In this document: piece by piece, positions 26,345-54,310 of the stretch
Layout of the letters: every line of letters begins with the position of its first letter
Numbering within the stretch: the first letter of the stretch is position 1
Source: Sphyrna mokarran
Taxonomy: Eukaryota
Length of the DNA: 64,000 bases
NCBI GenBank assembly: GCA_024679065.1
Contig: JAGIQG010000009.1
Span: 99,386,001-99,450,000 of the forward strand
Reading direction: 5' to 3'
Made by a program: the position numbers and the translations under genes
Notes under the pieces: generated by a model
What the model saw: the letters and a program-made list of their open reading frames with translations, nothing else
Told to the model about the DNA's origin: nothing
Databases searched by the model: none

Positions 26345-26371
26345 CTTTCTCTTTTTGCTTCAGGCTTTCTT
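26345..26371 (-). CDS. 27-nt microexon QESLKQKEK
   Basis: tttgcctaattag|AAGAAAGCCTGAAGCAAAAAGAGAAAG|gtaaat. Confidence 0.9.
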
Positions 26372-26594
26372 CTAATTAGGCAAATGCATTGGGTTAATTA
26401 CAATGATCTGTAATGGTCATATACACTTTTATTTCCCCTGAAGTGTCTCGATAAGGTGTGCAATGAACTGTAATATTAAACAATTATCCTGACTTATCCA
26501 GAGTTTTTTGACATCGTAAAAACGTGCAAACAATTTTTCTATCAATTAATATATGAAAATAATACCTTACTTAACTCAAATAGATTTTACTCAC

Positions 26595-26630
26595 GTGTCT
26601 TTTGCAAAGTTTGCTTCATGATATTAAGTT
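26595..26630 (-). CDS. 36-nt microexon ELNIMKQTLQKT
   Basis: tttttacttttcag|AACTTAATATC...AAGACAC|gtgagt. Confidence 0.9.
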
Positions 26631-27124
26631 CTGAAAAGTAAAAACGTTTCATACAAAATCTAGTATTTTAGTTTGCGTTCACTTTATTGTAATAGGAGAT
26701 CCAAAAACATGGCTTATTTTAGCGATAACATAGCACATCTCTAACTTTGCAGAATAAATTTTACTTTTTTCCACTACACAACAGTGTGAGGGAATAAAAA
26801 AAAACTACATGTACTCAGGGTTCCATTTTTCTCTAAATATGTTGAATCATCTTGCGCAAAAGGGAACATTTGTTCGGCCAAAGGAAATGCGCATGTGGAT
26901 TTTTTTTTACTGTGCATCAGAAACCGTTAAAGAAACACCTTAGAATATTAAAAACATCGTTTTGGAAGTGTGAACATAGACGCATCTGGTCAGATGAACA
27001 GCTTAACTGATTTTAATTATCCAATAAGAGATCAGTTTATTACTTCCTCCTTCGGTTACAGTTCGCTATGAAAATCTTCAGTTCATAATACATTACCAAT
27101 TGATACGCATTTTCATTAGAAAGG

Positions 27125-30100
27125 AAAAGAAAATAATAACTAGGAACAAAAATAAGCAATTCAGTCCATAGATTCTGCTCCGCCATTCAGAAGAATGGTC
27201 GCCTATCTCATCTCTGGATCAAATCTACTCTCCCCACTGTTCCCCATAACTTTCAATCCAATACTTATTGAATACCTATCAGTTCCTTAAAGTTACTCCG
27301 TGTCCCACCGTATACCGCTCTCTGAGGTAGTGAATTGCAAAGATTCACGATCCTTAAGAAATGTTGTTTCTCCTCATCTATACTTTAAATATGCAATCCC
27401 TTATCGTAAAACGATGCCATCTTGTTCCAGATTGCCTGTCCAGAAGAAGCATCACAGTACCTCAACTTGTTCGACATTTTTTACCATCCTGTATGCCTCA
27501 ATTAGACTTCCTCACTCTCTTGTAAACTGTGTTAAGTTTAGGCCTAACCTGCTCAATGTCTGTTTGTAAGACAAAATGCCCATCTTTGGACTCAATCTAG
27601 TGAACACCCTGTGAACTGCTTTCATGCATTTGCATGCTTCCTGAAATAACGGGATCAAAATCATACGCTGTAATCCAGGAGATGTCTTACCAAGGCTTGA
27701 ATAGGTTCAGAAACATTTATTTTCTTTCAAACTCACTTTCTTTATCTATAGATGCAAAAATAGAATTTGCTTTCCTTTTTTATTGCTGTACCTGCATACC
27801 AGTTTTCTCGGACATAGGCACAAGGACACCCAAGCTATTCAAACCAAAGCACCACCAAATCTCTGCCTATTTACATATTAAATTGCCTTTCAACTTAACG
27901 GACCAAATTGTTAACGTCACAGTCCATCCTCCGTTAAGCTCATATTTTGGCCCAACCACCTAAGTTATTATACCACTGACTCAAAGAATCCTTACAGTGC
28001 ATAATGAAGTCGTTCTGCGCATCGAGCCTGCGCCAATTCAGCGTCCCACCCAGGCCCACGCATCCCACGTCCGCCCAGTACCCGGTACCAGTCATCTACC
28101 TCATCTGCATAAGAACATAAGAAATAGGAGCAAGAGTAGGCCATGCAGCCCTTCGAGCCTGCCCGCCATTCAACAAGGTCATGGCTGATCTGAAGTGGAT
28201 CAGTTCCACTTTCCCACTTTCTCCCCATAACCTTAATCCCCTTGTTTATCAGAAACCTATCTACGCGTGACTTAAGTATATTCAACGAGGTAGCCTCCAC
28301 CACTTCAATAGGCAGAGAATTCCAGAGACTCACCACTCTTTGAGTGAAAAAGTTTCTCCTCAACTCCGATCTAAACTGCCCCACTCCCTTATTTTGAGGC
28401 TTGTTTTCTAGTTCTGCTATCCTTTCTAAGTGAGCGAAATCTCTCTTCCTCTACCCTATCTATCCTCTTCATTATCTTATATGTCTCTATAAGATCCCCT
28501 CTCAGCCTTCTAAACTCCAACGAGTACAGACCCAGCTGAAGATATTCAGCACTCCACCTTCAGGATATCCACGCATATATAGGGAGAACAGATTGTCTCC
28601 ACAGAGACAATCGCCGAAAGCCAGTCTCGAACCCGGATCACTGTGATGCATCGGAGCTATTGGTTGTGCCACCATGTTGCATTATCTATATGTAAATTTC
28701 TTATTTCTGCACCTGATCTGAGGATTCTACCTAGTTTAATATCATCCTTAAATGTGACTCCATTATCTTCTATTCCTTTACCCAAGTTGCTAATATGGAT
28801 TATCAGTGGTTCGTGCCCAAAGACCAAATAATGTGGCACCCCAATTATTAAATCTTGTCAACCAGAAAAAAGTACCATTTGTCCCGACTCTCTATTTTCT
28901 GTCAGTTAGTCAGTCCTCCATTAAATAAAATGCATTGTTTCTAACTAATTCTTCATGTGATCTGATCTCGTACATTAATCTTCTGTGCAGCAGCATACAG
29001 ATGTTACAGACGGGATAGAGGAGTATGTAAAACGTGTGGGAGAGTTGTAGTATTAGGTAAGGCCTCATTGCGGGAGGACATTCGAAGGGCTCATTCAACG
29101 AGGTAATAGGATAGAGCTCAGGAGTAGGAATGGTGTAGTCACAATGTTGAGCATTTACCATAGGCTGCCAAACAACCAGCGGGAGATCGAGGAACAGACA
29201 TGCAGGCAAGATGTAAAAGTGACAGTCTTACGTGGTGGGAGATTTCAACTTCCACTATATTGACTAGGACTCACTTAGTGCTAGGGGTACTACATTGGAT
29301 GTTGTTTACATGGACTCCAGCAAGGCCTTTGACAAGGCACTTCATGGTAGACTGGTACAGAAGGTGAAGACTCATGCAATACGAGGTGAGCTGGCAAGAT
29401 GGGTAGAGAACTGGCTTAGTCATGGAGACAGAGTGTCGAAGTGGAAGGCTGCATTTCTGAATGGAGGGCTGTGACAAGTAGTTTTCCTCAGAGCTCACTA
29501 CTGGGATCTTTGCTGTTTGTTAAATACAAAAATGAGTTGGCAGAAAAAATAACTAGTTTAATTAGTAAGTTTGCAGACGACATAAAGGTTGACACAAAGT
29601 GAACAATTCAGATCCTCGATGATTATACGAAGTGCAAAATGGAACTTAAGAAAATAACGAGGAAAACCAAAAGAGGGCATAAAACAAGCCTTGTGAATAG
29701 GATTAGGTGAATTCTAAGATATTTTATCAATACATTAAAGAGAAGTTAACCAGGAAATGTGTAGGGCCCATTCGAAACCAAGATGGTGATCTCTGTATGA
29801 AATCGCAGTATATTGGAAGAGTGTTAAATGGATACTCCTTCTTGATCTTTATAGTATCAAGGATAGGAAGACGAAAGTAGGAAATTCACGAAAAAAGGAA
29901 TGAGAGGAACATGCACCGTTTGACACAGGGAATGGAGAGTTGTTGATCTGGATGAATTGCACCGCAAGCTGCCATAGGATGCAACAGAAAAATGCAGGGA
30001 TCTGACATGCGTTTTCATATCTTTCTGGCCACGGGAACATGCCAGCGGACTGCAGGGCGGCTCATGATGTTCCAATGTTCAAAGATTAGTAGAGATGAAC

Positions 30101-31270
30101 TAAAAAGAATACAGGCCGCTGAGTCTCATGTCAGTGAATGGGAAGCTAGGGGAGAAAATTCTGAAGGAGATAATTAATATTTACTTCTTAAGGCATGAGT
30201 TTGTTAGAGATAGCATGGCTTTGACAGAAGGAGGCCATGCCAGACAATTATTAGAATTGGTCTAAAATGAGGTCAAATGTGTGGATGAGGAAAACTGCTG
30301 TAGTTGGTGGATTTTACCAAAACACTTGGAAAGGTGCCACATTGGGGACCAATTGAGAAGGTCATATCACATAGAATTCAGGGAAATTTAGCGACATAGA
30401 ACGGAAACTGGCATCGTAATAGGACACAACATGTAGTAGTAAAAGATTGTTGGAGGCTGGGAGAAGAAAAAGCAATTTGCCCCATTTCAGTTTTAAATGG
30501 ATTCCGCCTTATTGTTAAACAGTAGCACCAATTTCTAGGCTTTCGACAGCAAAGAAGACATCCTCGTCAAATTCACCATTTCAAAGTCAGGAATTTATCT
30601 GTTTCAGGCAAGTCACCTCTTATTCACCTGAATTCTAGCGGTCACATGCCTAGTCTACCCAACCTTTCCTCAGAAAAGGCCCTCACGTTCCGCTAGTAAT
30701 CTGATAAATATTGTTTGAATTATCTCCAAAGCATTTCCATTCTTCCTTATGTAAAAGGATAACATTTCCCACATTATTCTATATTTGCCAGATCGCTTCC
30801 CATGCAGTTCGCCTATCTATGCCCATTTGAGGCCTTCTCTGCTATCTTCATAAATTACTATTCTTCCTATCTTTGTACCTTTGTAACATTCGGCAATCAT
30901 CTTCTGCAACCATTACCAACGTCATTACAAATTGTAAACAGTTGAGGTCTCAACACACCACACTTATGGAACAGCATCGTTTCATCTTTTCAGTCCACAA
31001 AAAATATCAATTTGTACTCAATCACTGCTTCCCGTTAACCAGTCAAGTTCACATCCATGCCAATATGTTAGCCTCTATACCATGAGCTTTTATTTTCCGC
31101 AATGAACTTCGATGTAACAATTTATTAAATACGCCGTTGGAGATCTAAGTAGAACATGACCACCAGTTCTTCTTAATTCACAGTAAATGGTACTTTCTGA
31201 AACATCTCCAATCAATTGGTTAAACATGATATTCCTTTCACAAAACCATGTTGACTTTTCATGTATGATG
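27125..31270. mobile_element. Cluster of nested CR1 fragments on both strands, including a younger minus-strand CR1 3' end at about 28108-28535
   Basis: FFTQRVVSLWNSLP peptide, cataagaacataag tail, VGDFNF, agtaagtttgcagacgac (SKFADD). Confidence 0.8.
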
Positions 31271-32137
31271 GATCTGAAAAAATACCGTGGAAATGAAATA
31301 TAGCTCAAGAATTTGAACAGCATTTGAACAAGCGTACCACTTGTGGTTAAACTGGTGGCATCTTCCATTAATTGTTGTAACTGTCAGCACAAAAGTGAAT
31401 TTTGTCCAGTAAGCAATTGAGCAATGCCGTCTTTGGATTAAAATGTTGGTGCAATTAATGGCATTTAGACCGTATGTCTCAATGATTGACCAATTGGTCT
31501 CTTGAAGGTTTGCATCCTGTGCTGGACAACGCCAAAATAATCATTCTTTGTTATGTATGAATGTGTACTTGGTCAGCTGTTGCTCAGCTCACTTTTAGAT
31601 ACCATATGTCCTCTGAAATATCATCAGTTGAGCTCATGACTTGGCTTGCAAAACCAAAGGGTTGCTTGCAATCCTTGCGTTTTTTTTTGCATTACAGGAA
31701 GTTTGGTGAGCTTATGGTTCCCTGCTGCCATTTTCATATCAATTTTGTGTGTTATCAGGCTCTCTTGTTTTCTCTTGTGGTACAAATCATTGTCATTGCT
31801 TAAGATTTGGTATTCCCATCTTTCTCCAGATGAGTGCAAAGTTAAAACTGCAACTTTTGTCTCTTTCTCATAATTACAGATCTAAATTAAGAAATGAACG
31901 AAAGGAGAAAACAAAGAGCGGATGGATGAATGGTCTTAATTATTTTATGTAATATAACCTGATTATAAACTATTTGTAACAAGCTAACTGGTTTCAATAA
32001 TCTAGATATAATAGGATTCAAGTTTAGATCAATACTTCTAAAGATATTGGTAGCATTATTATGTTTGAAGGCAAATATATGAGCTGTCAGAAGATGCCAT
32101 TGATTATATTCACAAATTTCCCTTGTTGTGAACTTAC

Positions 32138-32164
32138 CACTTTCTTTCTCACTGAACGCTTTTT
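32138..32164 (-). CDS. 27-nt microexon EKAFSEKES
   Basis: tcttcactgcacag|AAAAAGCGTTCAGTGAGAAAGAAAGTG|gtaagt. Confidence 0.9.
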
Positions 32165-34652
32165 CTGTGCAGTGAAGACAAAAATCATTTAGTTAGAGAA
32201 TCAGTCCGACATATTGATTGATTAGCAAAACAGACCCTATCTCATTTTGAACAATTAGGCAAATAATTAATAAAGTAATAATGTGGAAACGTGATACATA
32301 TACGGATATAAACCGATGATTGAATCTAAAATTATACATTGGCGAAATCAGTAGATGGTAAAGGATATAACTTATTATTTCGTGTTTGGATTCTTGCCAA
32401 TGCAAAATAAATGAAGACATTTTAATTGATTGATCCATAGGGGGAACAGATAAGATCATGTTTAAATATGGATTTACCCACTATTTTAATTTCTATGGAA
32501 ATCAGCGACCATATAGAAAACAACTTTGCATTTCTGTCCCTTTGGCTGTCACAATGCGTGATAAATTAGATTAATACAACTAAAATATACTGAAGTGGTA
32601 TATTCCACTTTATATTAGGTGGATGATTTAAAGTATGCCACACTATGGTCGAAGAACAAACAACGAAAATGATTTCAGCAACAATAAGGCAATTTTAGGG
32701 GCAAGACCAATTGTGACAATGAGAGTGAAGCTGGCTGGGATCTTTGGTCAATTTATAATTAAAACCAGATGTAGGTAATAAAGTTGCTACATATTATGAC
32801 CCAGTCTATCTGACTATAGCTGGGCAAATTATCGATAATAATGACATTCGGTTCAGTGATGTCCTTCGGGAAAGAAAATCTGTCATATATGACAGGTGTG
32901 GCCTACATGTGATTCAAAATCTACACCAAGTTGGTTGACTTCTAACGATCCACTTACGTGGATAAATAAACCGCTCAGTTCAGTGATCATAAGAAATGGA
33001 TGACAATTTCGGTCGCTGCCAGCAGCGGCCCAGTCCCATCAAAAAAAAACATGATTTTCAATAAAGTGTGCCATTTGATAACTTCCATAACTTACTTTCA
33101 TGATCTTTTCGGAGAGTCCGAAGCATAAATCATAACTCCGTTTGAAATTCGAAAATGACCTTAAAGTTTATTCAGTTTTTATTTGCTATTATAAAGCTTG
33201 GCAACTTAACATTTTGAATTGCTGTGTATAAAAATGCAAAGACATCGCAATGAAAATGTAAAGGAGTTGAGGAAATGCTCTGTAACCAGTTTGAATGCAC
33301 ACATTGAACTCATGTTTTGTGTACATAATGCCGAATTTTGCAAGGTTGGTCTCTGAATCAGGTATTGACAAAAACATTCACACTGGTCGCGGAAGTTCTG
33401 TTGGAGAGTGGGACTGGTGGATGGACCTTGTCAAAATTTTATTTCAGGGAGACGGAAATTCCCGGATCGCTAAATTAATTTTATGATCGTATGTTGAACA
33501 TATATTATCCTGCCTAACTTTTACAAACTTTTTGGTCCTAAAAATCGCATGAAGACTGGTTAAAAGTATGTAAATATTCGACTGCTCTGAATGTTGCAAG
33601 AGTAAATCACAGGATGTGCCTTCACAACTATCCTTAATTCAGAATTATGGGGAGGCGCAGCACAACAGTGCAATATCAAGGGTGAAGCATTCGCAGCAAT
33701 ATGAAGCCAGAACTACCACTGTCTACTTGGATCCCTTTCTAAGTCAGGAGTGTGTTGGAATGCTGTCCATTTGCTCGATCATTACTGCTTCAGAGCACAC
33801 AAGAACCCCAACGCAATCGAGGACAAAACAAACCATTCCCTCAGCAATCACCATCAAAAACATACATTCTAGTCAAGACTAATACAGTATGGCAGCAGTA
33901 TTTATAATGTGCACCATAATATCCCAAAGCCTCCCTCAACAACACTTGTTATATGAACCTAAGGAAGAGTTGATTATAACCAAGAGACCATTCGGGGTTT
34001 TGTCATGATCGCCACGTGGCAAAATTTTGGCTTATCTGAATTTGATCTCAGTTGTACCTTTCATCTTCCTTTCGTCCTTTGACGTCTTGAGAGTTAGTCA
34101 AGACCCCATTTAACTCTATCTTATGAATATCAATGATCCTGCTTCAACTGCTCTCTCCATTGAGCGAGAAAGTACAACTCATGTGTATCATAAACATGAT
34201 ACCCCCGTCAGTTTAATATTTATCCCCTAATTGTTTTACCTTACACAAAAAGGATTATCATTTTTACCAACGATCCCATCAATTTCGTTCGCATCTTCCA
34301 CTCTTGAATAATCCAACCTCTCATTCTTCGGAACTTCAATGGACAAAGGCCCAAACTGTCAAATATTTCTTCCTTAATAACGTCCGAATCCAAGGAAACA
34401 GTCGACTAAATTTCTCTGAGCGGCTTCAAGTGTAATTATGTCCTTTCTGAAAGACAAAAACCGTAGCCAGTACTCTGATGTGATTGCACTATTACCTTGT
34501 GAACTGTAGCAATACTTGCCTATTGTTAGATTCAATTCGCCTTGAAATTGGCCGTAAAACCACCTGCTGGGTTCAATGCGAACGTTTATTTCCTTCGCGT
34601 TGCATAGCAACCAAATTTCTCTGTTGCACAGAATTCATCAATCTCTTCTCAT

Positions 34653-35794
34653 GGGAAGTCTGCCCATGGAAGACTTCTACAGAAAATGCAGATGTGTGGA
34701 ATAGAGGGTGATTTAGCAAATTGGATTAGAAATTGGCTGGCAGATAGAAGACAGAGGGTGGTGGTTGATGGGAGATTTTCATCGTGGAGTTCGGTGACGA
34801 GTGGTGTGCCTCAGGGGTCTGTTTTGGGGCCCCTGCTGTTTGTAATTTTTATAAATGATCTGGATGAGGGTATTGAGGGATGGATCAGTAAAATTGCAGA
34901 TGATACTAAAGTTGGTGGTGTGGTAGATAGTGAAGAGGGGTGTTTTAGTTTACAGAGTGACTTGGACAAGTTGCAGAGCTGGGCCGAGAGGTGGCAAATG
35001 GAGTTTAATGTGGAAAAGTGTGAGGTAATGCACTTTGGCAGGAACAATAAATGTGTAGAGTATAGGGCTAATGGTAGGGCTCTTAATAGTATTGAGGAAC
35101 AGAAGGATCTTGGTGTATGTGTCAATAGATCCCTGAAAGTAGGCAGTCAAGTGGATAAAGTTGTTAAGAAGGCATATGGAGTCCTAGCTTTTATTGGTAG
35201 GGGATTGAATTTAGGAGCCGCAGCATCATGTTGCAACTGTACAAAACTCTAGTGCGGCCGCACTTGGAGTATTGTGTGCAGTTCTGGTCCCCACATTATA
35301 AGAAAGATGTGGAGGCATTGGAGAGGGTACAGAGGAGGTTTACCAGGATGTTGCCTGGTATGGAGGGAAGGTCCTATGAAGAGAGGTTGAAGGATTTGAG
35401 GTTGTTTTCGTTAGAAAGGAGGCGGCTAAGGGGGGATCTTATTGAAACATACAAGATAATTAGAGGTTTGGATAGGGTGGACAGTGATAGCCTTTTTCCT
35501 AGGATGGAAAAAGCTAGCACGAGGGGACACAACTTTAAATTAAGGGGTCATAGTTATAGGACGGATATCAGAGGCAGGTTCTTACCCAAAGAGTGATTAG
35601 GGAGTGGAATGCCCTGCCTGCAGCTGTTGTAGATGCGCCAAGTTTGGTGGCGTTTAAGAGGTTAGTTGATAAGTATATGGAAGAGAAGGGAATGGTTTAG
35701 TTAGGAGGGGCATTGCTTTTTATTTTGGTCGGCACAACATCGAAGGCCGAAGGGCCTGTTCTGTGCTGTATTGTTCTATGTTCTATGTTCTATG
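34653..35794 (+). mobile_element. Young 5'-truncated CR1 LINE; RT C-terminus split by frameshifts; inserted into an older CR1
   Basis: GVPQGSVLGPLLF, IADDTK, RPHLEYCVQFWSP, LERRRLRGDLIETYK; (GTTCTAT)n tail; apparent TSD TTCTCAT at 34646-34652 and 35795-35801. Confidence 0.95.
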
Positions 35795-37354
35795 TTCTCA
35801 TTGAAATAATAAGCTGCTTCCTGATTGTTCTTGACAAGATGCACAATTTCACATTCTCTAACTTTGTTCTCCATCCCCAAATTACATTTTCAAGGAACTC
35901 TAACATTTTTGTCAAAAACGATTTCCCTTTTACAAAACCATTTTTACTATGTCTAATTGCATTGAAATTTTACACGTGCCCCTATATAACCGTCTTTCTA
36001 ATGGCTTTCACCATCTTTACAAGTACTTTCGGCTAACTGTTCTATATATTCCTGTTCTCTGTGTTCCTCATTTCATGACAGGGAGTTACTTTCGTTACTT
36101 TGCAAGATGATTGAACCTTTCCAGATAATAATCATTTCTTGAAAATGAAAAGCATTAAATATACTATCTCAGTAGCAATCTCAGGATCTGTACATTCAAC
36201 AAGGAGCAGGTCTGGAGATGGATGGGGACACCACCGTCTGTAAATTTTCCTCAAATCAACAAATATTCCGACTTGTAAGTAAATCGTCATTGTAACTCTG
36301 TAAGAATTCTGAAATTCCATTTTTAATGGAACTATGTGTGTGACTGCAGATATTCAGGAAAACTATCTGCCATAACAATCAGAAACATAAATGGGGATAA
36401 AGTTTCAACAGCTGGCCATTTACTCCAGGAGTGCGCTTACTAATTCTAAAAATCTAGAACAGTGAAACTTCCGGTTAGTATGCTAAATATCGAATTCAAT
36501 AGGATTTCATTTTGTCAAGATATTGTGTCACGTCATCTAAATTCTGGGAAGGTGTGTATTTGCACTCCAGCTATTCTCATGGAACTGCATCAATTTTCTG
36601 CATTTTCTTCAAAGAATGAAGTTTCTTCACCAGAGCGAGAAAACCAAATTGTGCAATATCCTCTAGGTATGGTCTCAGGAAGTTCCTATACCTTGCAGTA
36701 CAAGTTTTTCTTTTAGTTTGTAATGCCTATTGATTCTATGTAAACATAGAATTGTAAACATTAACTTACTCTTCGAATTGCTTATTTTGCTTTCGCGTCA
36801 TCGTTCTATGATTTGTGACTAAGGACACACAGGCCTCTTGAATGCGAACATTTACTACTTTCTCGCTTTAGAAATTATTTGTCTTTTCCTTTTCCGACCA
36901 AGTTGGTCATCAGCACCTTCCTCAGTAGTGTATCCCAGTTGCTACCACGTGCCCATTCATTGCGTGACTAATTCATTTTGTTTTTTGTTCACACATGAAA
37001 ACGTGGTTTCGTACCCAACATTGTAATTCCTCCAACTTGGAAAAGTTTCTCATAATTTCCTCAACTAGACTCTGACATTGACTGTAAATCGCTAAGGCTT
37101 AAGCATCTTTCTTTGTAGCGTCTCGCTGGAAAGAGCTTGTTAATTGTCTTCCTTTTGTCCCTCATCGGATCCTCATTCTAATGTATAAACTTCCAACTTA
37201 CTGAACATAGTATTGCGTAATTTCTAATTTTTTATTGGAACTAATCAAACGTTTACTTTTTTAGAAAATAAACTCCCTCATATGCCGGTCATTTACATGT
37301 ATTAATCCTGTCAAATGACATTTTATTCTTCTAAACACGCGCCAATAATTAAGA

Positions 37355-37960: not shown

Positions 37961-38170
37961 ACATACCTGTGCGATTCAGTTGTCAATTTCTAAATTAGAG
38001 GTTTTAGCATCCATCTTACTACTGGTGTCAGGTGAATTGACCTGCATTTTTTTGTCCCGTTCCTTCCTTCAACAGCAGAATGACTTTTCCTACCTGCCAT
38101 AGATGCTTCTGCAATCCAAGGAGTTCTGGACAATCATAAACAACCCAATACTACCTATCAAGCCTATTGC

Positions 38171-41800: not shown

Positions 41801-43021
41801 CCCTCTTATTATCTATCCAGTTATCTACATTCTAATTCCTGTCCAGAGAACGGATCTCTCTGGCATTTTCCTTTGCTGTTGTACCATGACGCCTTGCATA
41901 TAAATTTTAGTCAGGATTTGGAATTAAACCTTTCTATGTTTTGATATGTTCTTATTTTCGGTTTGAAGTTTTCGAATGACTATGGAACCCTTAATACATC
42001 GAAACAAACATACATTTAAGCCCTTTAGTCTAGCACGTAGTGGTTTGCAGGGGAAAGAAGTAAAGTACGCAGATCAATCCCGGGAATTGATATTCTGATG
42101 AAGTCCAAATTCAATCATTTTTCTGAACTGGGAGGACAAAATTTGCTCTTAGTACGAAATAGTAAATTTAGAAATAGCTGGTCTATTTGGTTCACTGGCC
42201 ATTGCTTACATCACAAAATAAATCATCAGACCAGAAATGTGATCCTGCAATGTGCTGAAGAAAATGAAGAGAAAAATAATGGTAAAACGGTTACAATTGG
42301 TTTTAAAAGCCTTCATAACTGATTTCGAAAAAGCATGCGCGTGAAGCGTATTTCAAAAGAACATTGTTACCTTAGCTGATCAAATCACGAAGTATTTTGG
42401 TTACCCGAGAGAAGCACAATGGGAAAGAAGAATGCACTAAGTAGTGAAAAAGAACCTGAATTGTAAATAAATAGCTAGCACACTTGCCACAATCCTTGCA
42501 ATGTGGCCTTATTTGTACAATAGTCAACAATAAGAGAAGAGCCACTAAAATGGATGGATTGATTGATTGATGCACGTTTTAGATGTACTAAATGAACGTA
42601 CACAAATCTGAACAAACGAATTTTGCCTTTCGAGTCGGCTTCATCATTCAATAAGATCATGGCTGATATGATTGTAACCTCTATACCAACATTTATACCA
42701 ACCCACAATTAACTTTCATCGTTGTTAATCAAGAGTATCAGAATCTGCCTGACAAATATCGAAAGACTTTACTTCCGATGCCTCTAGAGGACCAGGGTTT
42801 CAAAAACAGAGGACATTAAAAAAATCTCCGAATCGCTACTTTCAATGCCCCACACCACTTTAATGTGGAAAGTAAATTCGAATGGAATGCAATTTCTTTT
42901 CTTTAGAAACGAAAGTCGGGTACTGAGAAAACTGCTAATTTTAGTGAATAAGACTGATTAGTAATTGGGAATAAAAATTCGATAGAGTGGCATTTTCCCT
43001 TCTGCTAACATTGTTTTATAC

Positions 43022-43057
43022 CTGATAATTGCATAATATCTTTCAGGTTTTCGATGT
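43022..43057 (-). CDS. 36-nt microexon DIENLKDIMQLS
   Basis: ttttctttttcag|ACATCGAAAAC...TTATCAG|gtataa. Confidence 0.88.
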
Positions 43058-44465
43058 CTGAAAAAGAAAATCGGGTGAAACTTACCTAGCTTTGATTTCA
43101 TGTTTAATCACTTGATAGGAAAAAACATACATTTGATAGTATCCTTGTCCAACCGATGTTGTATATGTCTTACAAATTGAGCTTTTTTTAATCACCAAGC
43201 AGAATATGAGGCAAGGGGAGTAGTGAATAAACTGACAATAGATGCTGTCAGAACAAAGAGTCATGGACGGAATATTCTGGCCTTTCAAGCCTGAGGAACC
43301 TGGGTGTCATCATTCCCACCACGAGTTTCATTGTGGAGTGTGACGCATTCAAAGGGAAACCCCGTTTACAACGGTGAGGCCAGTAGGTGCCGCTGCGAAC
43401 ATGCGGAGTGTTTGGTGAAAATGGTAGAATGGTTGAGGGGAATATACGGCTTCTTCTGTCACATTTGGCATTGTGAAGGATCAATTCACATTGTCATTGT
43501 TCCAACCGTCCGTCACTCTGCAACTTCTTGTTTTTCGGAGCTACTTCCCCCTGAATGCCTCTATCGAATTATCTTCACTATACTCTCAGTACAGTGCATC
43601 GTCATCGCGCCGTTTATTCTTTGGCTACTCATGTGAAATCAAATAGATTTTAAAAAATCATGGAATAAATTAAGTAACACCTGTGCTTAACAACGTGCTG
43701 ACATTAGTCTATTTGCAGTTCTTGCAGGATAACTCACTTTAAAGGCTGCAGTAAGAAGTAAACATAATGCAGATATAAACAACCCGGAGTTGAAATTGAA
43801 AACCTCTTTTTTTGAAGAATTAACATTTCATTGGTGAAATATATGCTGGAAAATTAAATACAAAGGAATAAAGATTATAGTTGCACTTGAAATCTGCATG
43901 GACATGATTAGTAAGTCTGTTCTGTTTTATTTTATTGATGTACTATCGCATTTAAATATTGTCTAAGTGCAATTTCTGCCGTGTGAAGCTTGATAGCATG
44001 CAACCTGTTCTGACATTAGAATAGGATTAGCGTTGGTCGCCTTTTCTCGTTCCAGGCAAACATTTTTTTTAAAAATGTTCATGAATTACAAACAAATGAT
44101 GCAAAAGTATATTATAGTCTAAATAATCTTACTCATACAACGATGCTGATATTACTGTATGGGGTTGTTGGGGGGGGGGGATGGCGACAAACGGATGTTC
44201 GGCTAGTTATTATTATCTTCATACCCTATAACTTTCTCCTAGCCTTCAACTCTTCATCTTGTGTCCAAATATGAAGGCAAAAACGAATAGCTTGTTAGAA
44301 TATATGCTCTCCATCAATGGATTAACTAATCTTGCATAGAGATATAACCACACATTATATTTATAGAAAAAATACTTTTGGATCTTATTAATGTTTAACA
44401 TGTTGTAAATGCACCAACTTGTAATATAAACAGAACCGCATGTTTCTTTGTATGTTTTCTTTTAC

Positions 44466-44501
44466 CTGAGAGTTTTATAAGTTTATTAAGATGTTCAATT
44501 T
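44466..44501 (-). CDS. 36-nt microexon EIEHLNKLIKLS
   Basis: attatttttgtcag|AAATTGAACAT...CTCTCAG|gtaaaa. Confidence 0.88.
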
Positions 44502-45034
44502 CTGACAAAAATAATGGAAATAAAGAATAAAAGCGATGAATAAAAATAGAAAAAAAAAACTTAAAAAAAGGTAGTTATAGTAGCATCTGCGGAGAGAGAA
44601 ACAGAGTTAGCATTTGGACTTCATATGACTACTTCAGGGTTTTAGAGAAGGATAAATGTAATACATTATATACCAGAAAAGAAGGATGGAGAAGCTGAGC
44701 AACGTAGAACCTCAGAAATAAGTGGTACAAGGTGACATTGCAACAAGAACACGAGTCACAGGTAGTATTAAGTGTTACAAAGTTTACTCACAATACTAAT
44801 TAATGTAATATTTAACTTTTATAAAAAAAATCAGGTTTTGAAATTGCCCCATTAACCAGAGTGAGACACATTAATGCATGACACGATTATTTTCCAGATT
44901 AAGGGTTCACATTGAGACTTGCACGGCATAGCTCGCTTTGAGGATGGAACGAAAATATAGTTTACTTGAAATACATGCATGAGGACTCGATTACGACCTA
45001 AGATGTGCATTGAAGATAGCCAGACAAAATGGAA

Positions 45035-46375
45035 ATCAAGTTTTTTCAAGGAAGTGACGAAGATGACTGATGAGATAGGAAAGAGCGTGTTGTCTACATG
45101 GACTTCAGTAAAGCTTTTGATAAGACTGGTGCATAAGGTGACGTCGCATGGAATTAGTGCTGAGCTGGCCAGATTGGTACTGAACTGGCTTGATCATAGA
45201 AGGCAGAGGTCAGCAGTGGAACTGTGTGTTTCTGAATGGAGGGCTGTAACAAGTGGCGTTCCTCAGGGATCAGTGATGGAATCTTTGCTGTTTGTTTTTT
45301 ATATATATATAATATGAATAATTTGGAGGAAAATGTAACTGGCTTGATTAGCAAGTTTGGCCACAACACAAAGGCTGGTGGGTTCACGGATATCAATGAG
45401 GACAATCAGAGGATATAGCAGGATATGGATCGATTGGAGATTTGGGCGGACAGATTGCGGATGGAATTTAATCCAAACCAATGTGACGTAATGCATTTTA
45501 GAAGACCTAATACAGATATGAAATATTCATTAAAGGGCAGAACCCTTAAGAGTATTGATAAGCAGAAGGATATGGGTGTACAGGTGCACAGGTAACGCAG
45601 GTGAAGAAAGTAGTCAAGAAGGCATAAGGCATACTTGCCTTCATTGGCTGGAGCATTGAGTTAAAAAATTGGCAGATCATGTTGCAGCTTTATTGAACCT
45701 TAGTTTGGTTGCACTTGGATTATAGTATTCAATTCTGGTCACCACACTACCAGAAGGATGGGGAGCCTTTGGAGAGGGTACAGAAAAGTTTTACCAGGGT
45801 GTTGGCTGGTATGGAGGGTATTAGCTATAGGAGAGGTTGGGGAAAATTAGTTTGTTCTCACTGGGATAACGGAAATTGAGGGCCACCTGGTAGAAGGCTA
45901 CAAGATTATGAGGGGCATGGACATAATGGATAATCAATGGATAATTAAAAGCTTTTCCTCGGGGCGTAAGTTAATTACTAGGGAGCATACGTTTAAGGTG
46001 CGAGGGACAAGGTTTAGAGGAGATGTATGCAGCAAGTTTTTTTTTGCATAGACGAATTTTCAAACATCATTTTTCCTTGCTTTCATTACGCCGCGTTTAT
46101 GCAAATGACAATACAGCTGGACTATTGAGTATTACATTTCATTACGTCAAACAAGTGTGACATAAATATTTCGAAGTGTGTGCCTGGAACTTGCTGCCGT
46201 GGGAAGCAGTGGACTAGATACGTTAGTGACTTTTAATGCGCATCTTGACAAATGCATAAATAGGAATGGAATGGAGGGGCATTGTCCCTGGAAGATAGGT
46301 AGTTTTAGTTCGGCGCATGATTGGTGTGGGCTTGGAGGGTAGAATGGCTTATTCCTGTACAGTACTTTTTTTCTT
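45035..46375 (+). mobile_element. CR1 3' portion (RT C-terminus), degenerate
   Basis: GVPQGSV, SKFGHNTK, ttctggtcaccacactac; interrupted at 46054-46176. Confidence 0.9.
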
Positions 46376-46711
46376 CGTTGAAATAAGAAAGGCTATTCGT
46401 GTACACTTGGCTGACATATTGTTGAATTTGAGCCTTGATCGTCGAGGTGCATTCTATGTCACGTAGGCATAAATATAATAATTTCCACTGACAGTACTTT
46501 TCACCATTATTTCACGAGTAATCACACTTAATCTGAGGCTAGGCTGGATATTAGGTGCATCATTGTTAATAAAAAAAACCTCTGGTTCTTCGAAATATTT
46601 ATGCCATATTTGTTCAACGTAACGAAATGTAACACTCAATAGTCTAGCTGTAGTTGCCATTTGCATAAACACTGCGTGATGGAAGCAAGGAAAAATGATG
46701 TTTGAAAATTC
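46054..46711. repeat. ~123-bp inverted repeat (46054-46176 / 46588-46711), ~411-bp spacer
   Basis: gaattttcaaacatcatttttccttgc...ataaatatttcgaag is the reverse complement of cttcgaaatatttatg...ggaaaaatgatgtttgaaaattc, with scattered mismatches. Confidence 0.93.
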
Positions 46712-47328
46712 TTCCCAAAGTCACAGATGAGGGAATAGGGCTGCACTTCTAATGAAGAATGACAATGTAGGAATAACTTGCAATTTCACTTGAAGTCAGT
46801 AAATCAGATGTCATTCAGGCCTGCGATATCCTAATACGTTAAATACGATTTATCTGGACTGTATTTGCCTCATAAACGAATCAATTTCGGGTTTGAAAAA
46901 GAGTGAAAGTTGCCAAACATACTTTGCGATTGAGTCTCGAGTGGCGTTGATAATCTCAGTTCCCAGAACATTAGGAAGTCGAAATTTCTGTTTTATTTTA
47001 CAGATTCACTCTACGGTTCACAATATAGAGCGACAGTAATGTTACTGCCTGGTATTGACGCCATTTTGAGCCAGAATATTGCATAAATTACGCGAGGCAC
47101 AGTCAGTGCAATGCTCATAAGCATGCATAACTTTTTTTTAAAAACAATAATTGTTCTGTTAATGTGTGCAACTATATTCAGATATGGCTTTATAAAAGAA
47201 TATGAAAATAACATGGCTAAAATGAGTGCGCGGATTTAGATCACATGAACCCGTTTTAATACTGGCATTGGGGAAACATTTCAGGATATTTAAATTGTAA
47301 AATAAAATAAAGGTCTGCTGAGACTTAC

Positions 47329-47355
47329 CTTTCTCTTGCTCGATGATTCTTTTTT
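47329..47355 (-). CDS. 27-nt microexon EKRIIEQEK
   Basis: ttttctgtcttag|AAAAAAGAATCATCGAGCAAGAGAAAG|gtaagt. Confidence 0.92.
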
Positions 47356-48119
47356 CTAAGACAGAAAAAAATTCCTTACATTTTAAGCAAGCAGGAAATA
47401 TATTTCCTTCTCACAATAAATCAAAATAAACTATTTTTCTGAAGTGCAAAATCTTAAACAATGTTCAGCCAGGTTAAAGCTTTTCTCTTCATGTATTAAT
47501 GGGATGTAGGCACCAGGGACTGTGCTATCAGTTATTCAGCAATCCTGACTGGACTTGAGCTCCGTGATTCAGAGGGGATACAAGGGTCAGCAACATTGCT
47601 TTGGATTTGTAATCACATGCAAGCCAGACTAGGTAAGCGTCGCAAAGTTCCTTGCCAAAGAGGCATTAGCGAAGCATATGCACTCACTAACGCCCTCAAT
47701 TAATGTCTTTTCGAAAAATGACATCGATATCTGCGCATTATGGTAAAGCAGATTGTCGAATTTCAATCCGAGTCATGCAAAAGAACAATATGATTAGTAA
47801 AAAGATGAGTTATATTCGGTACCAAACGTTAATTATTTCCCGTTTTCTTATAAATTTGTTCAGCACTTTGAGTTTCGTTAGAAATATGGAAGTTTGTGAT
47901 ATAAATGCAATACGTTTTATGTATTTTGTTAGCGTTCTGTCTCGTCTTGTCGGGAAATCATTCCACCATATTGACTGCACTCCAAAGCCTGCAAGGATTT
48001 TCTAGAATGTTTCTATAAGGTGGAACAGAGATTACTGATCTGGTTGCGTGAGGAGTGCAATGGGAAGGAAAGGCCTCTGGTGGGGTTTGGAGTTCCTGCA
48101 GCTCCATCGTAAATTGTAT

Positions 48120-48216
48120 TTCCATCTTTCCTTCCATCCTTCCTTCCTTCGTTCCTTCTTTCCATCCTTCCTTCCTTCCTCCCAACTTCAGTTCTTCCTT
48201 TCATCCTTCCTTCATT
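48120..48216. repeat. Imperfect (CCTT)n microsatellite
   Basis: ccttccatccttccttccttcgttcctt... Confidence 0.9.
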
Positions 48217-48508
48217 CAATCTTTTAGATTCTGTTCGAACTAAAATGTGCCCTTCGATCTCTCTGTAAGTCCATCCATTCTCTATCCCACCATTCTTCCA
48301 CCCATAATCTTTCCAGCAACCGACTTGTCTAATAATCTATTTACTGATGTGACAATTGAACCTGTTCTCGAGAGGAAAATGAGCAAAACGGGCAAAATAA
48401 TGGCTCCCACAATCAGACTTTTCATTACAGTTTGTATAAATGACTACCAATATTCATTTCAAATGCATAACTAATTTGAAGTGCATTAAAAAAAGATGCT
48501 ACTGGCAC

Positions 48509-48544
48509 CTGCTTTCTTCAGGTGGTCTTTCAGTCTTCGAATCT
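48509..48544 (-). CDS. 36-nt microexon EIRRLKDHLKKA
   Basis: ttattttgttcgtag|AGATTCGAAGA...AAAGCAG|gtgcca; fits the EIxxLxxxL motif. Confidence 0.88.
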
Positions 48545-50805
48545 CTACGAACAAAATAAACAGTTTTTCATAAAATGAATCGCTGCAATTTTATTATTTC
48601 AGCCTTAGCATGTCACAGAAATATTATTAGTTTGAGGAAAGTTGCACCTCTTTTTTTCTGCACTGCATGATTTAGAAAAGCGAGAATATTCGCACTTCTG
48701 CAGTTCAAAAGTTTCCATACGCATTGCTGAACTTGCAGATATTGTAACTTTACTCTCAGTAAGTATTTACCACAAGCAAGTTTTATTTTCATTTAAGCAA
48801 GCTGCCTTTGTCGGAATAGTATATCTGTATTTGCAAATTTTCACGAAAATGGCTGACGTCAGACCAGCACAACGTCAGATTCATTTATTAGGAAAAAATG
48901 AATGAACACGGCAATATATGTCATTATTAAAAAGGTACGGATTTGGAATTTCTCTTTCAGAGTCATAGCTCTTAAATACCTAGCTATTGAAAGAGAACAC
49001 ACATCATTAAGACAAAACATTAGTCTGAATAAAGTAAGAGAAAACGCCTTCCACATTACACATTGAAATCAAATAATCGTGAGAGTGTCCAGGACAGATT
49101 GAGGGTGCAATAAGTTCTAAGGCATTATTAGTGGATGCAGCATTTTAAAAGTCATTTCGGTAATGTAACAAGCAGGATGCAGTAAATGGGCGCAATCAAG
49201 TAAATACACTTTCATTTCCAAAGAACGCTGTGTGTGGTGCCACTTTAAACGTTACTGCAAAAAAATACGACCTTCTGATATTTGAAGTGATACATGGCTA
49301 TAAGCAGAAGGTTGGAAAATAATCTTTTCAGTTTTGCAAGTTGTGATTACTGGACAGAAATAAAAATCAATGGTGAACCTCTGCTATGTGCATACTATGC
49401 TATTCAATTAGACAAAAATGTTAGCTGTATTGCAGCAAAATTTGCTGACGAATCTAAGTCAGTGAGAAATGGAATTACATATGTACAATATATATGCATA
49501 CACACGCACATTTACATAGATAATAGATCAAAACGTGACACATTCTAACATAAAACAAAGAACAAACATGAATTACATACAATAGGAATGCAGAATGTGA
49601 TGGATCCGAGTGGCCGTGTATTTAACTCACAAAAACCTAACATTTGGGTACAGCAAGTAAATAGAAAGGAAATTGTATGTTCGTGTTTATTGTAATGAAG
49701 ATTGAGAATAGAATAGATATGTGCACTTCTTCATATATGAAGGCGATAGGGGCCAATCACTTTGCACAGAGGCTTGTTTCTTTTTGTAAAATTGTTTCTC
49801 AGAGATCAGTAGAAACCTACTCATTGGATAGCGTCAAAGATCAGTCATCGGTATTTTGAAACACACAGGAGTCAATGATCATAGAAGGCAGGAAAGAATG
49901 TGGGCTAAATGACACCATCAGATTCAAAATCATCTTATTGAATGGATGCGCAACTTAATGAACAGCCTCTGCTCTATTTGTTATGATTTTACACAAGAGT
50001 CAATCAAACATCTAAAGGAGACGACTTTGAAAACAGATTATATAATGGAAGCAACTATAAGTTCAGAAAATGAAAATTATTAAGCAAGAAACGACTTTGT
50101 GATTGTTATTGTACTTAATGGAACTCATTGTTTTGAGATTTCACAAGTGAAGGCCGAAATGTCAATTAATTTTAGCGACGTTAAAAAATCGTAATAAACA
50201 TTGGGAAAATGTGGAAAGAGTCACATTACGTTTGGTCCATATATTACCTTTGTAATTGTATGAAGGAGATTGCGATATAATGCTTTGCAATTAAATAAAA
50301 TGTGATTTCCAGAAGTAGTTGAAATAAATACATAATTGCAAGATGTGTAGCCAAATAGATAAATCCATAAATATGGCACACATAATCTGAGTTGCTAATG
50401 AGGGGAAAATGATTTCTTTTCCCGTGTTATTGCCAAAGTAGATGGCACTGGGCATAGGAAGGACTATTTGATGAAGAGGATGACATTTCCATAATTAACT
50501 AGCTCATTTAATCTAAACAGAAGGAATTTCAAGGAGGTACTCAGGGTGGGGTGTTGTGTCGACCAAACCATATGACGTTTATTAATCTTTCCCGATGAAT
50601 GCCATTGAATCACGTCGGACACACAACATATCAACTGACCATAGTTCCCAATTTATCCATGTGAACTCCGACGCTGCACTCACATCTTTTCCCATATTTC
50701 CTTATCTAATTCTATGATACTGAATTTCCATTCCTTGTTCTATCACAAATATTTCTATCTTCCCTTTGAAGACATTCGAGCTATTCGCTTCAAATACTCC
50801 CTCAT

Positions 50806-51131
50806 GTTACGAATAGTATGTAACTTGAAATTCAATTTATATTTATACTTACGTGCTAACACAATTGAAACATGTTTCTAGTTCCAATTAGAAATGTTTG
50901 TGTTCTTGCATTTGTTTAGAAATCTTTGCAACATTTTTGTGCTTTGCAATGTGTTATTTTTCTTATTTAATAATTATTTTATTGTTTGTGTTAAAGGTAC
51001 GCTAACATAAGGAAATCACTGTACTGAGCAAATTAAAGCCGCGCATTACAGAATAGCAAAGTTAGCATTTACCAAGCGAGTGTTATTCTGGGCTCAGACT
51101 GTTCAGTACTAACACCAGGTGGGATCGTAAA
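50806..51131. mobile_element. Probable short solo LTR
   Basis: begins tgttacga and ends gggatcgtaaa (near-inverted termini); internal attaaa; no clear TSD. Confidence 0.45.
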
Positions 51132-51199
51132 CCCGCATAAGCACATCGACTACAACAGCAGGTGAAAGGCTAGGAAAACTGAGCGAGTAAACAAATTCC

Positions 51200-51665
51200 T
51201 AACACCCCAAAGCCGGTTCACCATCTACAAGGCACAAGTCAGGAGTGAATTGGAATGCTCCCCAGTTGCCCGAATCGTTCAACTCTAGCAACACCGAGGA
51301 AATTTGAGGACAAAGCAGCCTGCTTCATTGGAACCACATCTTCGCTGTCTATCATCAATGCTCAGTAGCAGCTGAGCGTATTATCTGCAAAATGCACCTT
51401 AACAGTTCACCAACAGATACACGGGAACACCACTGTCTCTTAGCCACTTAGAATTCTAACCAGTAAATATATTGTCATTCGTTTACAGTCGCTGGGTCAA
51501 CATTCTCAACGTTCTCCCTAATGTCACCGTGGTCAACCAACAGCACGTGGACTGTAGCGTTTCAAGATTGCAGCTCATTTTCACCTTCTCAAGGGCAACT
51601 CGAGAGGAGCATTAAATGCTGGCCAGCCAGAGACGCCTATGTTCCCTGACTGAATTTAAAAAAAG
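51200..51665 (+). mobile_element. 3' end of CR1/L2-group LINE (same family as 11690-15112)
   Basis: accatctacaaggcacaagtcaggagt (TIYKAQVRS), caccttctcaagggcaact, aaatgctggcc tail. Confidence 0.75.
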
Positions 51666-51714
51666 TCTATAGTCCTAACATGCTATATGTTCAGACTTAT
51701 GGCTGAAAAATTCC

Positions 51715-52790
51715 AAGGCCGGGAATCTCCCATTCGCTGCGCTAATGATTTTAGCGAGCAGGGAAAATCAGGCGTCGACCAATTTGCGAGGTTACGGTGA
51801 GTATTCGCGCAGAAAAGCAACGAGAAAGCAGGGTCAGCATTCAAATAGCATTTCGCATGTTATTTAAGTAATATTAAATACTAGCATCTCCCACTCTGCA
51901 AGGATATTTCATTCCAACTGATTTACACTAGCTTCCCGCTGACCGGGAACAGGAGGAAGTGAAGGGGGAGGGGAGGGGGAACTACCTGGCCCTCCACGGA
52001 GTCTGGGCCCAGGGAATGGTATGCCCTGGGCATGAATACCCTAGCAGTGCCATGCTTTACACACTAGCACAGCCGAACGGGTAAAATGGCCAGCGGATGG
52101 GCACCAAGTATGGATCAGTGCCAAGGAGACATTGCCAATTATAGGAAGGGTTTAGGGAGCGATGTCTATGCGGCGAAAAGTGTGGGTGGGGGTTCCCGCT
52201 GCCACTCTGCAGTCTGGATAGGTCAGTGATCAGATCGGACTGATCGGGGCAGGGGGGCGGTGATATCCGCCTACTGGGGGTCAGAATTTCGGGGAATGGG
52301 GAGTCTGGACTGTGGGAAAATGGGTTGGTCTGCAGGTGGGTCGGTTAAATGTCGCAAGTGAATTGGGGAAGGTGGTTGGAGAGAAGGAGGCAGGCCATTA
52401 ATGGCGAGCCAATGATCAGATTGTGGTGGGAGGCGGGCGGGGTGCAGGACGGCAGAGATGGCTGCATTGCGGAGGTCGAGGAGTTGGCCAGAAATGATCA
52501 GGTCAGCAAAAAGGGAGATTGTCAGTGCGGGAAGAGTACGCAAGTGCCATTCTCGGCACTGAAAGATCGGCGCGTGCGGAGTGGTCCGATCAGCACTCTG
52601 ATTTCAGTATCTTGAGCAACAATAGGCCCCGTCTTCTGAAATCCAATGATGTTCGCGCTAGTGGCCTCTGCAGTGCACAGAGAGTGGGAGATTCTTGTCT
52701 GAAATCTTATTGATGAAACCACCGTGAATTACTCCAGCTTTGAATTCGACGTTAGAAGTTACTGGGAGTCACTTCTGATAATTATCGCCT
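51715..52790. mobile_element. GC/G-rich interspersed element, probably a non-autonomous DNA transposon
   Basis: abrupt GC-rich island in AT-rich DNA; ends aatctccca...cgctaat vs gcgctag...tgggagatt partly inverted; family not determined. Confidence 0.45.
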
Positions 52791-52930
52791 CAAGCCTTGC
52801 TTGTCAGAGAACAAAATTAGTAATGAATGGCAGGGGTGCTACACAAATCAAACCACATTGACTAGTTTTTATACTCCGAGTATAAAACTTTATATTTCAA
52901 AAATAAAGCATTTTCTGAATAAGCATTTAC

Positions 52931-52957
52931 CTTTGTCTTTTAAAATGAGAGCTTTGT
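52931..52957 (-). CDS. 27-nt microexon DKALILKDK
   Basis: ttttttgacag|ACAAAGCTCTCATTTTAAAAGACAAAG|gtaaat; paralogous to exon 5206-5232. Confidence 0.9.
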
Positions 52958-53215
52958 CTGTCAAAAAAAAGAATAAGGCAGTTTGTACAGTACATCAAAG
53001 AACATAGCATTTTGTGTTCACAACTATATTTTGATGCAAATGTGACGAATAAACCGAATGAGTCAAATAATTGGCCGGTGCCGTTTCTTTATGCTAAACT
53101 GTATAGTTGATCAGATAAACTAAGTACCTAAATTGATTTTGCGAGCATGTGGAATTTCTTATATTGCATTCTTCTTTCATACATTAAAAAGAAGAATACT
53201 TTATTTCTTTTTCAC

Positions 53216-53251
53216 CTTTCTCAAAGAGCATTGATTCAAGCGTGTTCATTT
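53216..53251 (-). CDS. Coiled-coil microexon gene, 36-nt exon, (E)MNTLESMLFEK (most 5' exon found)
   Basis: tctttgttttcag|AAATGAACACG...GAGAAAG|gtgaaa; phase 1-1, no stop, hydrophobic at positions 2/5/9. Confidence 0.85.
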
Positions 53252-54039: not shown

Positions 54040-54310
54040 CTTACATCAACGCTGCAATGAAGTTACCGCGAAAATCACCTAGTTGCCACCCTCCAGCACC
54101 TGTTGAGGTATATTGGAAGAAAATTTAGCATGGCCAGTGCACCTGGCCAGCATATTTTTTGGACTGTGGAAGGAAACTGGAACTCCCTGAGGGAACTCAC
54201 GCAGACACGGGGAGAATGTAGAGACTCCACACAGACAGTGCCCTAAGCCGGGAATTGAACCCAGGTTCCCTAGTGCTGGGAACTGGCAGTGCTAAGCATT
54301 GTGCCACTGT
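54040..54310 (-). mobile_element. tRNA/V-domain SINE
   Basis: cacgcagacacggggagaatg, gggaattgaaccc (B box), cattgtgccac. Confidence 0.85.

Follow-up and report, generated by a model that had tools for sequence, protein, structure and literature searches.

A Sphyrna mokarran gene with a micro-exon coiled-coil array and a terminal B30.2 exon

Introduction

What kind of protein is encoded by a gene whose exons are mostly only a few codons long, and does the length of those exons set the register of a coiled coil? We address this question in the shark Sphyrna mokarran, starting from a 64,000-nucleotide (nt) stretch of its 2.77-Gb genome (G000:C1548:99386001-99450000, hereafter the window; positions are window coordinates unless contig C1548 is named). 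An initial annotation of positions 26345-53251 had described exons of 36 and 27 nt, pairs of which encode exactly three heptads, or 21 amino acids (aa). By reading 784 kb around the window, we traced these exons to a single gene, hereafter gene B. It probably represents a soluble shark and ray protein family in which a long coiled-coil rod ends in a divergent B30.2/PRY-SPRY domain, with no immunoglobulin (Ig) domain, membrane anchor, or RING.

Here, we determine the exon architecture of gene B, the limits of its heptad register, and its paralogues and genomic setting, and weigh its origin against known B30.2 and micro-exon genes.

Results

Micro-exons in the window

We scanned the window for open exons with AG..GT ends and phase 1 on both sides, and refined the candidates by guided search. 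All 17 candidates that the scan returned were on the minus strand; a narrower scan with a single threshold set gave 15 there and 0 on the plus strand, compared with 0-2 in each of 20 Markov simulations. The empty plus strand and the simulations together indicate that the minus-strand exons are not due to chance. After refinement, the minus strand of the window contained 22 phase-1/phase-1 micro-exons, ten of them within 26345-53251 (six of 36 nt and four of 27 nt, all AG..GT). All 22 are collinear with a protein of the catshark Scyliorhinus torazame (XP_072329363.1, P0005), matching it at 140 of 200 aa with no gap at 20 of 21 junctions, whereas the plus strand, passed through the same procedure, yielded nine weak, scattered pieces. 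The micro-exons are real parts of a gene, and in transcript order they are as follows.

1..64000, minus strand, entire window inside gene B; the exon chain extends past both window ends
53216..53251, minus strand, 36-nt micro-exon, long class, MNTLESMLFEK, phase 1, pair 1
52931..52957, minus strand, 27-nt micro-exon, short class, KALILKDK, pair 1
48509..48544, minus strand, 36-nt micro-exon, IRRLKDHLKKA, pair 2
47329..47355, minus strand, 27-nt micro-exon, KRIIEQEK, pair 2
44466..44501, minus strand, 36-nt micro-exon, IEHLNKLIKLS, unpaired, first of the 36-36-36 run
43022..43057, minus strand, 36-nt micro-exon, IENLKDIMQLS, unpaired, in the 36-36-36 run
38309..38344, minus strand, 36-nt micro-exon, IDQLRKSLKDT, in the 36-36-36 run, counterpart in paralogue A not found
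32138..32164, minus strand, 27-nt micro-exon, KAFSEKES, pair 3
26595..26630, minus strand, 36-nt micro-exon, LNIMKQTLQKT, pair 4
26345..26371, minus strand, 27-nt micro-exon, ESLKQKEK, pair 4
24861..24902, minus strand, 42-nt micro-exon, 14 aa, Pro-containing
23709..23735, minus strand, 27-nt micro-exon, TDVLRIQF, weak donor
20958..20981, minus strand, 24-nt micro-exon, NKIAQVK
20233..20259, minus strand, 27-nt micro-exon, long-class pattern, LEKVRAKL
17554..17580, minus strand, 27-nt micro-exon, DQLKEKTA
15909..15932, minus strand, 24-nt micro-exon, LKKCQDS
9238..9264, minus strand, 27-nt micro-exon, NHMFEKQI
6972..6998, minus strand, 27-nt micro-exon, long-class pattern, LENRIKMS
5206..5232, minus strand, 27-nt micro-exon, KQIEIKDK
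2517..2552, minus strand, 36-nt micro-exon, KTELTKMLQIS
1042..1068, minus strand, 27-nt micro-exon, KKLTDVKK
865..891, minus strand, 27-nt micro-exon, QDTKYKTD

The long open reading frames of the window are derived from repeats. Two fragments in introns (34608-35249 and 63250-64000) are what we take, from their motifs, to be endonuclease and reverse-transcriptase remnants of the long interspersed nuclear element type; the frame of the second stays open for 897 codons beyond the window end.

Gene B and its protein relatives

Gene B covers about 367 kb of the minus strand and consists of a 132-nt Met exon with an ATG (C1548:99470323-99470454, 20 kb past the window's right end), 132 micro-exons, and a last exon, for the B30.2 domain, that begins near C1548:99103835 (282 kb past the window's left end). 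The micro-exons measure 15-42 nt (5-14 aa) and total 3,783 nt across 352 kb; 70 are 27 nt long, 32 are 36 nt, 15 are 24 nt, six are 21 nt, and nine have other lengths. Every one of the 132 is symmetric (phase 1-1) with AG..GT/GC ends, and the spliced frame contains no stop; because exons were selected as open, the evidential weight of this open frame rests on the collinearity with catshark. The count is accurate to a few exons: 24 were added by paralogue match or splice strength, a few with splice strength as the sole basis. Five guided calls (66568, 73738, -143083, -265037, and -269965) were rejected as spurious or mis-bounded.

Together the micro-exons encode approximately 1,260 residues of coiled coil. 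The second half of gene B and its B30.2 domain are matched by Scyliorhinus canicula XP_038671249.1 (P0001), and the first half, including the start motif, by P0005; four regions are 68-71% identical to the catshark proteins, and the first few exons 52%. Further database relatives come from Narcine, Cetorhinus, Hemiscyllium, and Rhincodon, and the records are split models named golgin-like, trichohyalin-like, A33-like, or uncharacterized. In our best reading, these records would represent one family of shark and ray genes that has been split and misnamed in databases. A profile search for family members, which constrains the family's range only weakly, recovered P0001 alone among the matches listed, crowded by ordinary B30.2 proteins. 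Beyond this, the ESM Atlas returned generic coiled-coil clusters alone, and the Pfam PKG leucine zipper gave a weak match below the cut-off (E=0.0017) that we treat as resemblance only.

We detected no Ig, RING, or B-box domain in P0001, P0002, P0004, or P0005, and no RING or B-box trace in the family proteins or upstream of genes A and B. Likewise, no Ig-like exon was found in the 32 kb upstream of the gene B Met exon or in the 22.5 kb upstream of a neighboring paralogue, A, and a weak test for V-set domains found none near gene B among the 150 scored of 1,261 candidates. The highest 19-residue hydropathy in ten family proteins was 0.5-1.4, compared with 2.4 in a butyrophilin control. One transmembrane-like exon (86844-87092) was discarded as part of a repeat that is matched 20 times in the region.

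Two features of the array stand apart from its general pattern. The first five micro-exons (69347-75383) keep their lengths and splice sites while diverging fast, and in two of them the heptad pattern is gone and Gly or Pro has appeared. Between -116208 and -184987, a higher-order repeat of six to seven exons with Cys-containing 27-nt exons recurs in three to four copies; the Cys-containing exons of gene B are possible candidates for inter-chain disulphide or metal sites.

Exon pairs and heptad register

The initial annotation presented the 36+27 pair as a rule that carries a continuous register. In transcript order, the ten exons of 26345-53251 measure 36, 27, 36, 27, 36, 36, 36, 27, 36, and 27 nt, giving four 36+27 pairs and one 36-36-36 run (44466, 43022, and 38309), within which four targeted searches revealed no hidden 27-nt exon. 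Across gene B, 36 nt is followed by 27 nt at 23 of 131 junctions and 27 nt by 27 nt at 31. The pair is not a general rule. Instead, long-class exons (24-36 nt, hydrophobic at positions 2, 5, and 9) usually alternate with short-class exons (27 nt, hydrophobic at position 4), and the resulting 51 long-short units encode 21 aa in 16 cases, 18 aa in ten, 12 aa in four, and other lengths in the rest. The 36+27 combination is the commonest unit and keeps the heptad register, whereas units of 18, 17, and 12 aa shift it.

A register running unbroken through the gene is not what we observed either. The assigned register is interrupted within the 36-36-36 run, itself present in P0005 as well, and of the 31 distances from one 36-nt exon to the next, only 11 are divisible by 7 aa. 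Downstream, the assigned register is kept across a 14-aa exon and two groups of 27- and 24-nt exons that each add up to 35 aa, which indicates that other exon sums hold register as well. Nine isoform models of Narcine, which are annotation models as opposed to reads, differ by single blocks of 8, 8, 11, 12, and 23 residues and by their ends. Since these models drop single exons, including ones of 8, 11, or 12 aa, they argue that splicing would ignore the pair unit.

The residue patterns proposed for the two exon classes held in part. The long-class hydrophobics at positions 2, 5, and 9 are present in all four pairs of 26345-53251 and in 19, 20, and 18 of the 23 pairs gene-wide, and position 16 is hydrophobic in all 23. 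The predicted core positions 12 and 19 behave differently: 12 is hydrophobic in 8 of 23 pairs and mostly small otherwise, and 19 in 2, with Lys in 17 (for 2/5/9/12/16/19 in the four pairs, the counts are 4/4/4/0/4/0). Of the seven short exons cited as examples, three lie outside the range given for them (17554, 5206, and 1042), two of these following a 27-nt exon instead of a 36-nt one, and the K-[DE]-K ending said to occur often is found in three of the seven.

Dimer model of the coil

To place the register in structure, we used a model in which two copies of the orthologous stretch, P0005 116-245 (130 residues), were folded together. The dimer scored 0.35, narrowly passing the tool's mark, and the best of three controls scored 0.00. 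Among solved pairs, 21 of 30 from microbes and 17 of 29 from eukaryotes reached this mark, as against 0 of 23 and 0 of 30 single chains, respectively. Contact agreement across runs was at least 75%, with a predicted local distance difference test (pLDDT) value of at least 72. The modelled chains are parallel and in register, and their tightest self-contacts fall at cassette positions 2/5/9/12/16/19. The last named contacts are at residue 187, immediately ahead of the other 36-nt exons of the run, the unnamed residues being merely uncertain. The model thus suggests that the a/d frame of the initial annotation, which fits both the 36+27 pairs and the modelled core, is right in its positions, with d positions that are polar in character: a small residue and Lys or Gln at two of the three.

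The B30.2 domain

The terminal exon of gene B matches Pfam SPRY (E=1e-7), with Pfam PRY itself unmatched. Its best matches among solved structures by sequence are BTN3A and TRIM21 (butyrophilin matches with E about 1e-9), and a model of the family domain folds as a B30.2 domain with TRIM7 as the top fold match. We built a careful unrooted tree of 49 B30.2 domains and a quick tree of 155 rows. In the careful tree, a 100/100 branch sets the 16 family rows on one side, away from the TRIM, butyrophilin-like, and teleost coiled-coil rows.

Paralogues, duplication, and selection

Upstream of gene B, paralogue A (G000:C1548:99503000-99847400) contains 88 open micro-exons, in a set from which two were dropped and to which nine were added, and lacks the last third of the gene B array. 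Of these, 85 have an open gene B partner of the same length with intact splice ends. Paralogue A may encode a coiled-coil-only protein or splice into gene B. A third start exon at 100.48 Mb, followed by exons of 36, 27, 36, and 42 nt, brings the tandem start exons to three, and seven more B30.2 exons of the same clade (L073-L087) lie at C668 8.56, 11.34, 11.88, 11.93, 13.72, and 14.32 Mb and at C1548:101.42 Mb. Upstream of these seven, intervals of 20-30 kb each contain 3-10 micro-exon candidates in the sense orientation versus 0-5 in antisense. The family therefore comprises at least ten loci on two contigs.

The proposal that the array grew by ancient tandem duplication of a two-exon cassette is directly supported by P0005, which carries one extra 27+36 unit (21 aa) at its sole gapped junction; this makes cassette duplication one real mechanism. 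Introns were said to lack obvious similarity, and indeed repeats within gene B have flanks that resemble each other no better than shuffled sequence does (0/30, 0/12, and 0/992 alignments scoring at least 30). By contrast, flanks of matching A and B exons reach this score in 61 of 170 cases, and intron lengths correlate with a rho of 0.52. This difference indicates that the internal repeats are far older than the A/B gene duplication.

Purifying selection, the last of the earlier proposals, is borne out at moderate strength. The ratio of nonsynonymous to synonymous substitution rates (dN/dS) between A and B is 0.45 (95% interval 0.36-0.55) at a dS of 0.66, a value taken from one paralogue pair with exons chosen partly by similarity, which favours conserved ones. 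Under the same selection of exons, 21 exons of the window give a ratio of 0.33, and nine from 26345-53251 give 0.43 (0.22-0.88).

Two exon pairs drew our attention separately. One A/B pair is identical at 27 of 27 bases (279727-279753 in A, -73756 to -73730 in B) despite a dS of about 0.66, pointing to gene conversion or strong splicing constraint. Within paralogue A, two identical 24-nt exons lie 1.6 kb apart (238975-238998 and 237351-237374), as expected of a recent single-exon duplication.

Genomic setting

Gene B is linked with the major histocompatibility complex (MHC). All 53 of 53 MHC class I matches fall on its contig at 85.8-95.8 Mb (to 95.84 Mb), 3.3 Mb from gene B at 99.1-99.5 Mb; a class II search gave zero matches anywhere in the genome and is uninformative. 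Most B30.2 matches lie at 92-113 Mb on C1548, placing gene B inside a cluster of many dozens of B30.2 exons. The contig also holds a V-set cluster at 81.1-81.8 Mb.

Discussion

We consider it likely that gene B belongs to a soluble shark and ray family combining a long coiled-coil rod with a terminal B30.2 domain. In such a protein, two chains would pair in parallel and in register, as the dimer model predicts. A coiled coil rises 0.15 nm per residue, and the dimer would form a segmented rod of up to approximately 190 nm holding two ligand-binding B30.2 domains. Symmetric phase-1 exons allow any exon to be gained, lost, or skipped in frame, and rod length and hinges could change by exon duplication, loss, and skipping. 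By analogy with a BG or butyrophilin cytoplasmic tail or a RING-less TRIM, the protein may serve as a cytosolic scaffold or sensor. Whether this role is immune, as MHC linkage hints, we judge to be evenly balanced.

Several observations weigh against this interpretation. Gene B is known here from genome sequence and protein comparison; no single database protein covers the whole chain, and the models of two catshark species are overlapping halves. Register was assigned by an ad hoc, unvalidated scoring that produced 45 breaks in 1,261 aa. The dimer was modelled on an orthologue of gene B, and its pass may reflect likeness to solved coiled coils. The unrooted B30.2 tree neither joins the family to butyrophilins nor names a parent, and the butyrophilin rows do not form one group either. 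Finally, the B30.2 domain of gene B has a branch length of 0.53 versus 0.22 in catshark and reads for 153 codons up to a TGA (L049:7375-7310, C1548 ~99103370), 20 residues short of the catshark and basking shark proteins, both of which have Arg at this site. Two modelled strands are lost with the stop, one at 156-165 and another, short, at 172-174, and the truncated domain may not fold. Paralogue A has a B30.2 remnant (~116900-117000) with stops and frameshifts and a TGA at the same codon; the stop could be a recent allele, a shared old change, or an assembly error.

Among the alternatives, we take seriously, while finding it somewhat improbable, that the family derives from a TRIM that lost its RING and B-box, its likeness to BG and butyrophilin tails being convergent. 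The surrounding cluster of B30.2 exons, the TRIM-like database names, and TRIM7 as best fold match all fit this origin. TRIM coiled coils, however, are antiparallel and encoded on large exons, whereas ours is modelled as parallel; no trace of RING or B-box was found; and the unrooted tree sets the family apart from TRIMs and butyrophilins alike. Phase-1 heptad micro-exons are, moreover, the described architecture of BG genes (PMC5938342).

A comparable standing, possible and somewhat short of probable, belongs to a structural or cytoskeletal rod resembling a BG-derived zipper protein on actin-myosin, with no immune role and with MHC linkage reflecting ancestry only. A BG tail fragment displaces tropomyosin (PMC5938342, PMC8813856), dN/dS is below 1 with no overall diversifying signal, and six clade members reside on another contig. 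Against this, the birth, truncation, and decay of paralogues near the MHC resemble immune gene families, and B30.2 is a ligand-binding domain.

More doubtful is a bolder extension of our preferred reading, namely that the family is a third combination of butyrophilin parts, a long micro-exon heptad tail with B30.2 and without Ig or transmembrane segments. It would descend from the phase-1 cassette of the BG tail, whose origin would then go back to the earliest jawed vertebrates, and skipping of single exons in an array of more than 130 would generate many rod isoforms with movable hinges.

We think it unlikely that gene B is a paralogue that has recently died or is dying, with an array that is a relic of past selection, although the early TGA where catshark and basking shark read on, the longer B30.2 branch, the drifted first five micro-exons (two lacking the heptad pattern), and the broken B30.2 domain of neighboring A would all fit such decay. 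The open, same-length partners with intact splice ends for 85 of 88 A exons speak against it, as does the failure of 33 targeted searches to find a stop-bearing copy of an expected exon. Furthermore, the 20 residues beyond the TGA remain identical at 14 and 16 positions to the catshark and basking shark orthologues, respectively, which indicates a recent stop, an allelic one, or an error of assembly.

Very improbable, finally, is that the array forms the cytoplasmic tail of a true butyrophilin- or BG-like receptor with Ig and transmembrane exons further upstream, for example with A and B or a further gene as one transcription unit: the Met exon does have a phase-1 acceptor with the frame open before its ATG, and C1548:99.87-100.44 Mb lies outside the sequence read, but three paralogues and P0005 all begin with this ATG start exon, neither an Ig nor a real transmembrane exon occurs in the intervals searched upstream of B and A, and no orthologue model contains either.

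That a pair of exons equals three heptads is by itself of modest interest. The family gains significance as an out-group for the question of how BG tails arose and what role they play with B30.2 domains, which PMC8813856 describes as unclear. It also offers a natural test of exon length and splicing versus coiled-coil register, as whole-exon changes of 8, 9, 12, 18, and 21 residues can be compared across paralogues and species. In the literature searched, which did not cover most subscription journals, we found no published description of the family, and it may be described there. Heptad micro-exons are roughly four times as numerous in gene B as in the BG genes described in PMC5938342, PMC4046983, and PMC8813856.

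Comparison with known systems

Schistosome micro-exon genes consist mostly of symmetric micro-exons that can be skipped in frame, and encode short secreted proteins with no coiled coil or B30.2 domain. They resemble gene B in their symmetric, skippable exons and are otherwise unrelated. Class IV TRIM proteins (TRIM7, TRIM21, and "A33-like") share with gene B a coiled coil, cytosolic in TRIMs and probably so here, a C-terminal PRY-SPRY domain of the same fold, and the same cluster; they differ in having RING and B-box domains, whereas the coil of gene B is far longer, encoded on micro-exons, and, in one orthologous 130-residue fragment, modelled as parallel. RING-less TRIM-like genes occur in birds (PMC10445537).

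Teleost proteins resembling si:ch211-14a17.10 (P0035, P0040, P0045, and P0075-P0078) likewise join a long coiled coil to B30.2, and some have 21-aa repeats, a 21-aa isoform difference, and signal-peptide-like starts. They form their own branch (100/99) among butyrophilin and TRIM rows, however, and these very long proteins are possibly a convergent design.

Butyrophilins (BTN3A1/A3 and BTN2A1) share with gene B a heptad region followed by B30.2 and MHC linkage. They differ by Ig-V/C2 domains, a transmembrane segment, and few heptads before the B30.2 domain (PMC5938342, PMC4046983, and PMC8813856), in contrast to the approximately 1,260-aa coil of gene B and its separate B30.2 clade in the unrooted tree.

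The closest parallel in exon structure is chicken BG. Its tails comprise 27-38 phase-1 exons, mostly of 21 nt, with split first codons, variable exon number, and alternative splicing; the genes encode a signal peptide, Ig-V, and a transmembrane exon, are described with no B30.2, and lie in tandem in one orientation linked to the MHC (PMC5938342, PMC4046983, PMC8813856). Gene B shares the MHC linkage, the tandem copies in one orientation, and a coiled coil on many symmetric phase-1 micro-exons with split first codons; its family also resembles BG in variable exon number and, in the ray isoform models, alternative splicing. It differs in its B30.2 end, in the Ig and transmembrane exons that were not found, and in having 21 nt in only 6 of 132 exons. 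Gene B thus falls outside BG genes, butyrophilins, and TRIMs as defined, and may by analogy be likened to a BG tail joined to a B30.2 domain.

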